Source: Eubacteriales bacterium
GTDB taxonomy: Bacteria > Bacillota > Clostridia > Oscillospirales > CAG-272
Direction of reading: 5' to 3'
DNA: 64,000 nt
NCBI GenBank assembly: GCA_045653505.1
Contig: JAZOLZ010000001.1
Span: 19,223-83,222, forward strand
This document shows, piece after piece, positions 50,184 to 50,595 of the stretch. The first letter of the stretch is position 1; each line of letters begins with the position of its first letter. A program made the translations under genes and the position numbers. A model generated the notes under the pieces. That model worked only from the letters and a program-made list of their open reading frames with translations. It searched no databases and was not told the DNA's origin.

Positions 50184-50214
50184 GTATATTCTTTCGGGCA
50201 TAAGACTAAGAACA

Positions 50215-50450
50215 CATGAGGTCAAGGGCGCACTTGTGCGCTCCGTATTACCCTTGACCCATGTATTATAATGGAAAGTCCGAGAGAATATGCCTTGCCG
50301 TAGGCTAGGCATATCCAATTGATATATCGTAAGGAAAAGAGAGCAAGAGAGGAAGGGTGCAGCAGGGCGCTCCACGTGAGTGGTCTGCTTCGCCCTTCCT
50401 CTCTTTGCGAGGCTTGTATATCGGTTGCGCACTGTATAATAAGGCGCAAC
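50215..50450 (+). other. Structured phage intergenic region with four GC-rich hairpins (candidate ssDNA origin or packaging signal)
   Basis: H1 at 50215-50263 (catgaggtcaaggg/cccttgacccatg, with the inner palindrome gcgcacttgtgcgc). H2 at 50288-50314 (atatgcct/aggcatat). H3 at 50345-50405 (aagagaggaaggg/cccttcctctctt). H4 at 50424-50450 (gttgcgc/gcgcaac). Confidence 0.6.
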
Positions 50451-50595
50451 AACATTCAAAAATTGAACATTCTCTCATATAATAGAAAAGTTTTCTATTA
50501 TACCTCATAAAAATTCTAAAACGTATATGTCTTAAAATAATTTGGTATTATTATATATTTACCCGGGACAAATTTATAAAAAGAAAGGAATTACT

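Follow-up and report, generated by a model that had tools for sequence, protein, structure and literature searches.

We analysed a 412-nt gap between genes at positions 50184–50595 of a 64,000-nt stretch of genomic DNA from a Eubacteriales bacterium (contig JAZOLZ010000001.1; the whole stretch is referred to here as the window), together with the ~5.2-kb element in which the gap lies. This element forms a low-GC block (29–36% vs about 40%) between an aspartate-kinase gene and spoIIID, carries all eight of its open reading frames (ORFs) on the + strand, and has as its working identity an integrated filamentous-type single-stranded DNA (ssDNA) phage. The gap is bounded on the left by the stop codon of an 81-aa ORF (49938–50183), which is translationally coupled to the 303-aa ORF of a putative rolling-circle initiator, Rep (49030–49941, + strand), and on the right by the ATG of a 67-aa coat-like ORF (50596). 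An earlier note on this DNA had drawn attention to four stem-loops in the gap, H1–H4, and had read them, after the model of the Ff phages, as candidate ssDNA origins and packaging signal.

Folded as ssDNA, the + strand of the gap reaches −74.8 kcal/mol, compared with −39.1 ± 3.8 kcal/mol in 100 dinucleotide shuffles, none of which equalled it (z = −9.5), and the − strand reaches −68.8 kcal/mol (z = −6.75). On both strands the gap is far more stable than shuffled sequence, and the claimed row of strong hairpins is borne out: H1–H4 lie where the note had placed them, and each is individually significant against shuffles (z scores of −3.1 to −6.6). Two elements beyond these four, H5 and H6, were recognised beneath the promoter that the note had proposed for the coat gene. 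The ORFs within the gap are not conserved at the protein level, as judged by tblastn of these five ORFs (41–111 aa) in relatives, which gave weak short matches only (E ≥ 2e-4), all over hairpins conserved at the nucleotide level. Searches of the window with Rfam 15 at gathering and permissive settings left the gap without a family and returned only miRNA-like sub-threshold matches (best 25.7 bits, where gathering requires 80), and the gaps of ten related loci, searched at the gathering setting, yielded no family either. Thus, neither a conserved protein nor a known non-coding RNA (ncRNA) was found in the gap by tblastn or Rfam.

The equivalent region was compared in eleven relatives (Rep identity 41–55%; related loci carry L numbers), giving, with the window, 12 phage genomes of gut Clostridia. 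Related contigs of 5.0–5.6 kb have terminal k-mer overlaps and one was recovered in two rotations, so that circular forms exist. The region is 570–1070 nt long in the relatives, against 412 nt in the window, which holds a shortened version and does not have the small minus-strand ORF found in the region of the relatives. H1–H6 are nevertheless recognisable across the family, and the compensatory changes for which the note had suggested looking are seen in H3 across the 12 genomes and in H4 and H5 across 20 sequences. Directly upstream of the coat gene, the relatives also carry a gene of 82–97 aa (MVKIEITGYKKI...; e.g. L044 2869–3117), of which tblastn found no remnant in the window; a 72-aa ORF after the window's coat gene (50858–51076) was considered as its counterpart and rejected, BLASTP giving no alignment. 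A protein-guided scan of IMG/VR added two distant loci only.

H3 (50343–50408, + strand) is an imperfect hairpin of 28 pairs (ΔG = −25.3 kcal/mol, z = −6.6) standing on the perfect 13-bp base AAGAGAGGAAGGG/CCCTTCCTCTCTT already described in the earlier note. It occurs in all 12 genomes, at lengths of 59–87 nt and with zero invariant columns. In a plain MAFFT alignment of these genomes, double-sided changes are found at 21 of 22 consensus pairs, and 84% of the cells are paired, compared with 56% after shuffling (0/500 as good) and 48–57% with slid partners. G·T pairs number 43 on the + strand and 3 on the − strand, and the + strand gives the more stable fold in 10 of the 12 genomes under DNA parameters and in every one of them under RNA parameters. 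The compensatory changes and the G·T asymmetry therefore point to selection of H3 as a single-stranded fold of the coding-sense (+) strand; by this comparison, H3 is not a duplex palindrome. At the structural level only, it behaves as an orientation-specific hairpin of the viral strand. A T-rich stretch follows H3 in 5 of the 12 genomes, while the window and most relatives have no T-run there. Because H3 is the longest of the hairpins, universal, formed by the + strand only and kept in the satellite-like elements described below, we consider it the best candidate for the packaging signal, at roughly even odds.

H4 (50424–50450, + strand) has a 7-bp Watson-Crick stem and a 13-nt loop (ΔG = −7.1 kcal/mol, z = −3.1, 2/200 shuffles as good). 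The loop carries the family-wide motif TGTATAATAAG (50433–50443; conserved loop form yTGTATAATAAG), and the stem, 6–9 bp long, takes at least eight different forms, every one of them Watson-Crick. H5 (50455–50467, + strand) is a 13-bp palindrome, TTCAAAAATTGAA, that is thermodynamically trivial (ΔG = −1.4 kcal/mol); in the family it appears as a palindrome of 4–7 bp, 4–6 nt past H4, with a sequence that differs between genomes. Its centre at 50461 lies 18–30 bp from the H4 loop positions and ~23 bp downstream of the middle of the loop. We fitted an alignment of 20 H4–H5 sequences to a covariance model, with which an independent MAFFT alignment agrees. The H4-to-H5 spacing is gap-free throughout, and double-sided changes affect 7 of 8 pairs in H4 and 4 of 5 in H5 (11/13 together). 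Paired cells amount to 80%, compared with 62% after shuffling (0/500) and 38–47% with slid partners, and G·T pairs are nearly absent.

A covariance model of H4–H6 retrieves the module in all close relatives; in L064, as in L006 and L016, whose Reps are distant (25–35% identity), it finds H4 and H5 alone. In the latter two, the pair precedes rep by only 30–130 nt, and the H4 loop of L016 reads TCTATCTAACAA, in which key −10 positions are lost. A match to the H4–H5 model in L008 was set aside, being 3 kb from rep and beside host-like genes, and the DNA pattern TGTATAATAAG...TATTATACC gave eight chance matches in IMG/VR, on unrelated contigs. Since the pair follows Rep into relatives with only 25–35% identity, H4 together with H5 is the best candidate for the plus-strand origin, and probably serves as such. 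By analogy with the origins of Rep_trans plasmids, H4 would be a candidate nick hairpin for Rep (counterpart of ICRII) and H5 a candidate Rep-binding repeat (counterpart of ICRIII).

This assignment draws on the predicted Rep_trans fold of Rep, a 303-aa protein with 29 homologues. An AlphaFold (AF2) model (predicted local distance difference test score, pLDDT, 88.5) had as its top Foldseek matches in the PDB the structures 4cwe, 4cwc and 4cij (RepDE, RepSTK1; E 4e-10, probability 1.0, template modelling (TM) score 0.53–0.59). An invariant motif, SGRVKVYxK..ER, appears to resemble the catalytic-tyrosine motif of Rep_trans proteins. In Rep_trans plasmids the ICRII stem-loop presents the nick site while dimeric Rep binds ICRIII, nicking needs extrusion of the hairpin under negative supercoiling, and the pC221 origin combines a conserved nick hairpin with a plasmid-specific repeat centred 23 bp downstream (PMC4797284, PMC5775427). 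With a Rep of this predicted fold, the model for the plus origin would be the ICRII–ICRIII arrangement of pT181/pC221, which points to H4 and H5, not to H1. The note's proposal of an Ff-like plus origin nicked by Rep consequently survives only in part: a rolling-circle Rep is present, but it belongs by predicted fold to the Rep_trans class and is not of the HUH type of gpII.

Comparison of Rep sequences offers a possible link to the variability of H5. The Rep pairs L048/L025 (92% identical) and L047/L049 (86%) differ mostly in one C-terminal segment, and their H5 differs too; the Reps of L044 and L047 are only 62% identical, yet share both the C-terminal segment and H5. These comparisons are suggestive only of a role for the C-terminal segment as the determinant of H5 specificity. 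The hypervariable segment comprises residues ~257–270 (about 49798–49839), with the pattern ..M-xxxx-R-x-K-Y/F-R/K-K... One version of it, SSTPRAKYRKL, is found on the divergent Rep backbones P0004, P0011 and P0020, which suggests exchange of a specificity module. Separately, a hairpin with 19-bp arms (95% complementary) and a T-run at its end covers the Rep start codon (49001–49045), and its arm sequence GTTTATACAGAGTGGC recurs at 53883–53898, just inside the right end of the element; this hairpin could act in translational or transcriptional control of rep or be part of attP.

In two relatives, elements of ~815 nt without a credible ORF lie to the right of the prophage between two dif-like sites (L049 8638–9470 and L004 8041–8876, both inverted), and a similar piece at L025 1–375 is truncated by the start of the contig. 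These mini-elements carry an H3-like hairpin, a hairpin in the H1 slot, H4, H5, H6 and the att core, and from their sequence they are candidate satellites or mini-phages. A satellite or miniphage able to replicate and be packaged could be expected to retain just these parts. That they are kept without credible genes argues for a cis-acting role of the region as DNA.

H6 (50478–50502, + strand, with a tail ACCTCA to 50507) is an AT hairpin, TATAATAGAAA/TTTCTATTATA (ΔG = −6.4 kcal/mol, z = −5.6), that is conserved in the relatives and shows one clear compensation of G-C to A-T. Its stem contains TATAAT, with no −35 within the duplex, and by analogy it is a candidate ssDNA-promoter or minus-origin element. 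H5 and H6 also account for the coat promoter that the earlier note had read as TTCAAA-17-TATAAT (50455–50483). The site is present, but neither its −35 nor its spacing is conserved, and it is built from the left arms of these two conserved hairpins, so that we do not retain the assignment. A better-placed promoter-like site for the coat gene is TTAAAA-16-TATATT (50532–50559, + strand), where the relatives have an extended −10 of the TGTTATACT type. At the left edge of the gap, TTGAAA-18-TATATT (50161–50190, + strand) is the counterpart of a site that we term P_L in the relatives, where a 12/12 consensus TTGACA-17-TATAAT at the same position, just past the small ORF, reads into the region. Given these promoter-like sites at its edges, the region is probably transcribed too.

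In 9 of 11 genomes, an inverted copy of the −10 region of P_L, 15–21 nt long and 470–875 nt away, makes up the 3′ arm and tail of H6 (e.g. L047 7046–7066 with 7882–7902). The repeat occurs in four compensatory variants (GAGGT/ACCTC, GCGGT/ACCGC, GGAGT/ACTCC and GAAGT/ACTTC); in the window it is degenerate, with 7–9 nt remaining (50180–50188 with 50499–50507). It may reflect long-range pairing of ssDNA or paired protein sites. Speculatively, pairing of P_L with H6 could close the region into one large ssDNA stem-loop and rebuild a promoter there.

In the left part of the gap, H1 (50214–50264, + strand; ΔG = −15.3 kcal/mol, z = −5.6) has an outer stem of 5+9 bp with one bulged A and encloses the palindrome GCGCACTTGTGCGC, as the note had described it. 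Besides this inner GC palindrome, it presents an unpaired conserved motif, CTCCGTATTACC (50242–50253). The H1 core, GGGCGC...GCGCTC(C)GTATTACCC, is conserved in sequence in 6 genomes with limited covariation (6/18 pairs compensatory), and in other relatives the slot is filled by a hairpin of another type; we regard H1 as a candidate minus-strand origin or accessory site. Motif comparison identified a −10-like sequence, TATTATAAT, followed by the conserved single-stranded AGTCCGAGAGA (50277–50287; both within 50264–50287, + strand). With at most one mismatch, AGTCCGAGAGA follows a TGnTAnAAT-like motif in the window, L025, L042, L047, L049 and L004. H2 (50288–50314, + strand) is a short GC hairpin (ΔG = −9.2 kcal/mol, z = −5.2), at whose position L047, L049, L025, L048, L003 and L042 have hairpins of differing sequence.

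Regarding the other genes of the element, the 67-aa coat-like protein (50596–50799, + strand) has, as read from its sequence, an N-terminus that is amphipathic, together with the hydrophobic helix and basic C-terminal tail of a filamentous-phage coat protein; it is 45–60% identical in relatives and without a family match in Pfam or PHROGs. Further downstream, a 282-aa Zot/pI-like morphogenesis ATPase (52994–53842, + strand) carries the Walker A motif GGLGSGKT and has 338 homologues, many of them on contigs of 4–6 kb. Three tandem repeats of 33 nt (51999–52097; two identical, one 79%) lie within a 409-aa ORF and encode a repeated coiled-coil stretch, ELETQKNTYET; the product is a putative adsorption or minor-coat protein. 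No integrase is encoded in the element or in any family member, and the element had no BLASTN match among 50,697 phage records.

The ends of the element are marked by a 36-nt direct repeat with 31/36 positions identical at a spacing of 5192 nt. The left copy (attL) lies at 48718–48753 and the right copy at 53910–53945, within an attR (53910–53962) that contains a full dif-like palindrome, ATTATACAAAA-GAAAAA-TTTTGTATAAT (53933–53960). This 11-6-11 palindrome is perfect and occurs once in the window, where chance would give 0. All family members, including the circular forms, carry the att core CAATTATACAAAA together with a degenerate second arm, and relatives occupy the same slot between aspartate kinase and spoIIID. 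From these sequence features, the element looks like a filamentous prophage of Clostridia that exploits Xer (IMEX-type). A peak of cumulative GC skew at ~55–56 kb and a turn of gene orientation from + to − at about 55.5 kb are as expected near a replication terminus, which fits a dif-like site. A tRNA-Ser(GGA) gene upstream of the aspartate-kinase gene (46909–46999, − strand), beside the kinase also in L047, L049, L050 and L003, is not the integration site. In relatives, a conserved minus-strand gene of 140 aa lies between aspartate kinase and the prophage (e.g. L049 1820–2242, L050 5095–5517), for which tblastn found no match in the window. At 211–297 the window contains a SAM riboswitch (RF00162, 73.4 bits) without the P4 helix region of the model.

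We propose, with a probability of roughly 0.6, that the gap acts in cis in replication and packaging, and that the element around it is an inovirus-like ssDNA phage of ~5.2 kb, integrated in a Clostridia host and without an integrase. The structures, their conservation and covariation, the strand asymmetry of H3, the predicted fold of Rep, the H4–H5 geometry and the association of this pair with rep are observations; the functions that we infer for H1–H6 would combine as follows. The Rep_trans-type initiator would drive rolling-circle replication of the phage. On the supercoiled replicative form, H4 would extrude and offer its loop TGTATAATAAG to the active site of Rep, with the Rep dimer anchored on the palindrome H5 ~23 bp downstream, much as RepC and RepD use ICRII and ICRIII. 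H3, well formed only by the + strand, would mark the displaced viral strand for assembly, and it may also stop or slow transcripts entering from the left. H1/H2 and/or H5–H6 would serve the conversion of ssDNA to double-stranded DNA (dsDNA), as a minus-strand origin recognised by the host RNA polymerase. The origin-and-packaging reading of the earlier note is thereby kept in its outline, through the element's main non-coding region with its hairpins, the Zot-like ATPase, the rolling-circle Rep, the covariation, the strand specificity of H3 and the ~815-nt elements, and given up in its Ff-type model of Rep action and its coat promoter.

Several observations weigh against this proposal. By sequence, Rep has no match in Pfam (PF02486, E ≤ 0.1), PHROGs or the PDB, and its family placement rests on a predicted fold with a TM score of about 0.55. 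L042 and L050 have H5 in common while differing in the Rep segment, and the Rep alignment gave no columns that fully partition the H5 types. The ATPase is weak evidence for an inovirus: Pfam Zot matches 4 of 42 members of its family (best E 1e-4), the protein of the window not among them, and Foldseek of its model against BFVD returned Inoviridae Zot (E 3e-5 and 7e-4) with TM scores of only 0.3–0.4 (0.3–0.5 overall). Ha and Hb, two upstream hairpins of the relatives, are missing from the window, as is the greater part of the long-range repeat, so that this copy may be incomplete. Finally, the H4 loop resembles a −10 box, which makes a promoter or operator reading possible, and both the consensus promoter at the left edge in relatives and the many G·T (that is, G·U) pairs of H3 fit a role in RNA equally well.

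That last role would have the hairpins act mainly in a structured leader or ncRNA transcribed from the left-edge promoter, with H3 as terminator, attenuator or processing site for the coat operon. The strength of P_L in relatives, matched in the window by TTGAAA-18-TATATT, a second −10-like motif past H1, and the restriction of H3 to the coding-sense strand with its wealth of G·U-type pairs are all what such a transcript would show, as is the T-rich stretch after H3 in 5 of the 12 genomes. The T-run is missing from the window and most relatives, however, Rfam yields no family, and drift from C to T on a packaged ssDNA strand would likewise yield a G·T bias. The ~815-nt mini-elements keep the H3-like hairpin, H4, H5 and H6 without a credible downstream gene, leaving nothing for an RNA leader to control, and H4 and H5 are strictly Watson-Crick and symmetric and accompany rep even where they lie upstream of it. 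We consider a predominantly RNA-level role unlikely; some of the hairpins, H3 above all, may still have a role in RNA. It is rather improbable, too, that H4 and H5 are instead double-stranded regulatory sites, in which the loop would be a −10 box, the H4 arms and H5 operators of a dimeric regulator, and the covariation that of paired half-sites. The TATAAT within TGTATAATAAG, the want of G·T pairs expected of palindromic protein sites, the weakness of H5 as a fold of its own (−1.4 kcal/mol) and the position of the pair in L006 and L016, which at 30–130 nt ahead of rep is where a promoter would lie, would all agree with it. Yet no −35 is conserved, the TG runs straight into TATAAT where a spacer base is usual, and the L016 loop TCTATCTAACAA has given up the key −10 positions; a GC stem of 7–9 bp around a conserved loop of 12–13 nt is the classic layout of a nick hairpin, the 23-bp offset to H5 agrees with a Rep_trans origin (PMC4797284), and no regulator gene is evident in the 5.2-kb element.

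A folded attP of the CTX-phage type, with two inverted Xer sites paired in ssDNA within one of the hairpins, is very improbable. It was suggested by an integrase-less element at a dif-like site and by the integration of CTX phage via a forked ssDNA hairpin (PMC3442271), and is contradicted by the junction sequences: the att core (CAATTATACAAAA...) is confined to the other non-coding region, the spacer from ATPase to rep, of the prophage and of every circular relative and to the prophage ends, and neither it nor its inverse occurs in 50184–50595. Going beyond the proposed replication and packaging region, it is conceivable, though doubtful, that the hairpin set is a portable cis module (packaging hairpin, Rep_trans nick hairpin and binding repeat) that also travels alone in the ~815-nt satellites next to the full phage at a dif-like site, and that the P_L/H6 pairing closes the whole non-coding region of the full phages in ssDNA. 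A single sequence would then act as an ordinary promoter on the replicative form and as the single-strand promoter from which the minus strand is primed.

RNA-polymerase-recognised ssDNA origins or promoters are known from the Ff minus origin, ssoA and ssoU of Gram-positive rolling-circle-replication (RCR) plasmids and F Frpo, and Ff miniphages are natural, gene-poor mini-genomes that keep the intergenic region. In the Ff phages (f1/M13/fd) this region comprises the packaging hairpin A, the minus-origin hairpins B/C and the plus-origin hairpins D/E. The gap resembles it as a non-coding row of hairpins in a small, filamentous-type genome coded on one strand, in which one long imperfect hairpin, here H3, would by analogy work on the viral strand only, and in which gene-poor elements of ~815 nt retain the region, like the miniphages. 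It differs in lying between the rep and coat operons rather than after the last gene, in the predicted Rep_trans fold as opposed to an HUH-type gpII, in the absence of sequence similarity, in promoter-like sites inside it and at both edges, and in its Gram-positive host. The resemblance of H6 to ssDNA promoters is purely structural: TATAAT sits in a duplex, and in relatives H6 is able to pair, through its 3′ arm and tail, with the −10 of P_L. It has no sequence similarity to ssoA motifs, its duplex contains no −35, and the long-range repeat is degenerate in the window.

The double-strand origin of pT181/pC221 provides the closer parallel for H4 and H5, with an initiator predicted to have the same fold, a hairpin with a conserved loop followed ~23 bp downstream by a short, replicon-specific inverted repeat, a Rep segment, variable and near the C-terminus, that plausibly reads this repeat, and symmetric Watson-Crick pairing in both H4 and H5, as for a cruciform or duplex site. 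In contrast to the plasmids, the H4 stem varies where ICRII is described as conserved, the loop has 12–13 nt rather than 6, the origin lies outside rep, the nick site is a prediction, and Rep is too diverged for PF02486. With CTX and the IMEX of Vibrio, the element shares a filamentous type, an initiator of (here predicted) Rep_trans class, the want of an integrase, a dif-like 11-6-11 site near the turn of GC skew, and small satellite-like elements adjoining at the same site. It differs from them in its Clostridia host and in its attP, a lone site of which one arm is perfect, with no forked hairpin visible; here, use of Xer is predicted. In outline the region resembles the Ff intergenic region, and in the detail of H4–H5 a pT181-type origin; it is a sequence relative of neither.

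Most likely, the gap adds a further example to a kind of element already known and does not represent a new one; an origin and packaging region is expected of such an element, and the surprise is moderate. Searches of open-access text turned up no description of the loop motif or the Rep family, nor of the satellites or the dif-like integration site. Almost all that is known of filamentous phages in Gram-positive gut anaerobes comes from sequence, and their origins and packaging signals are not established. The present analysis contributes a map of candidates, namely a nick hairpin with a family-wide loop, a binding repeat at pT181-type spacing and a strand-specific packaging hairpin, across a family with hundreds of metagenomic members. 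If the hairpin set were indeed a portable module and P_L paired with H6, Clostridia would have their first described system of filamentous phages and satellites that exploit Xer, one in which a promoter doubles as an origin. The map itself may be of use for phagemid-like vectors for Clostridia, for recognising such prophages and their satellites, and for testing whether Rep_trans origins share one architecture across plasmids and phages.

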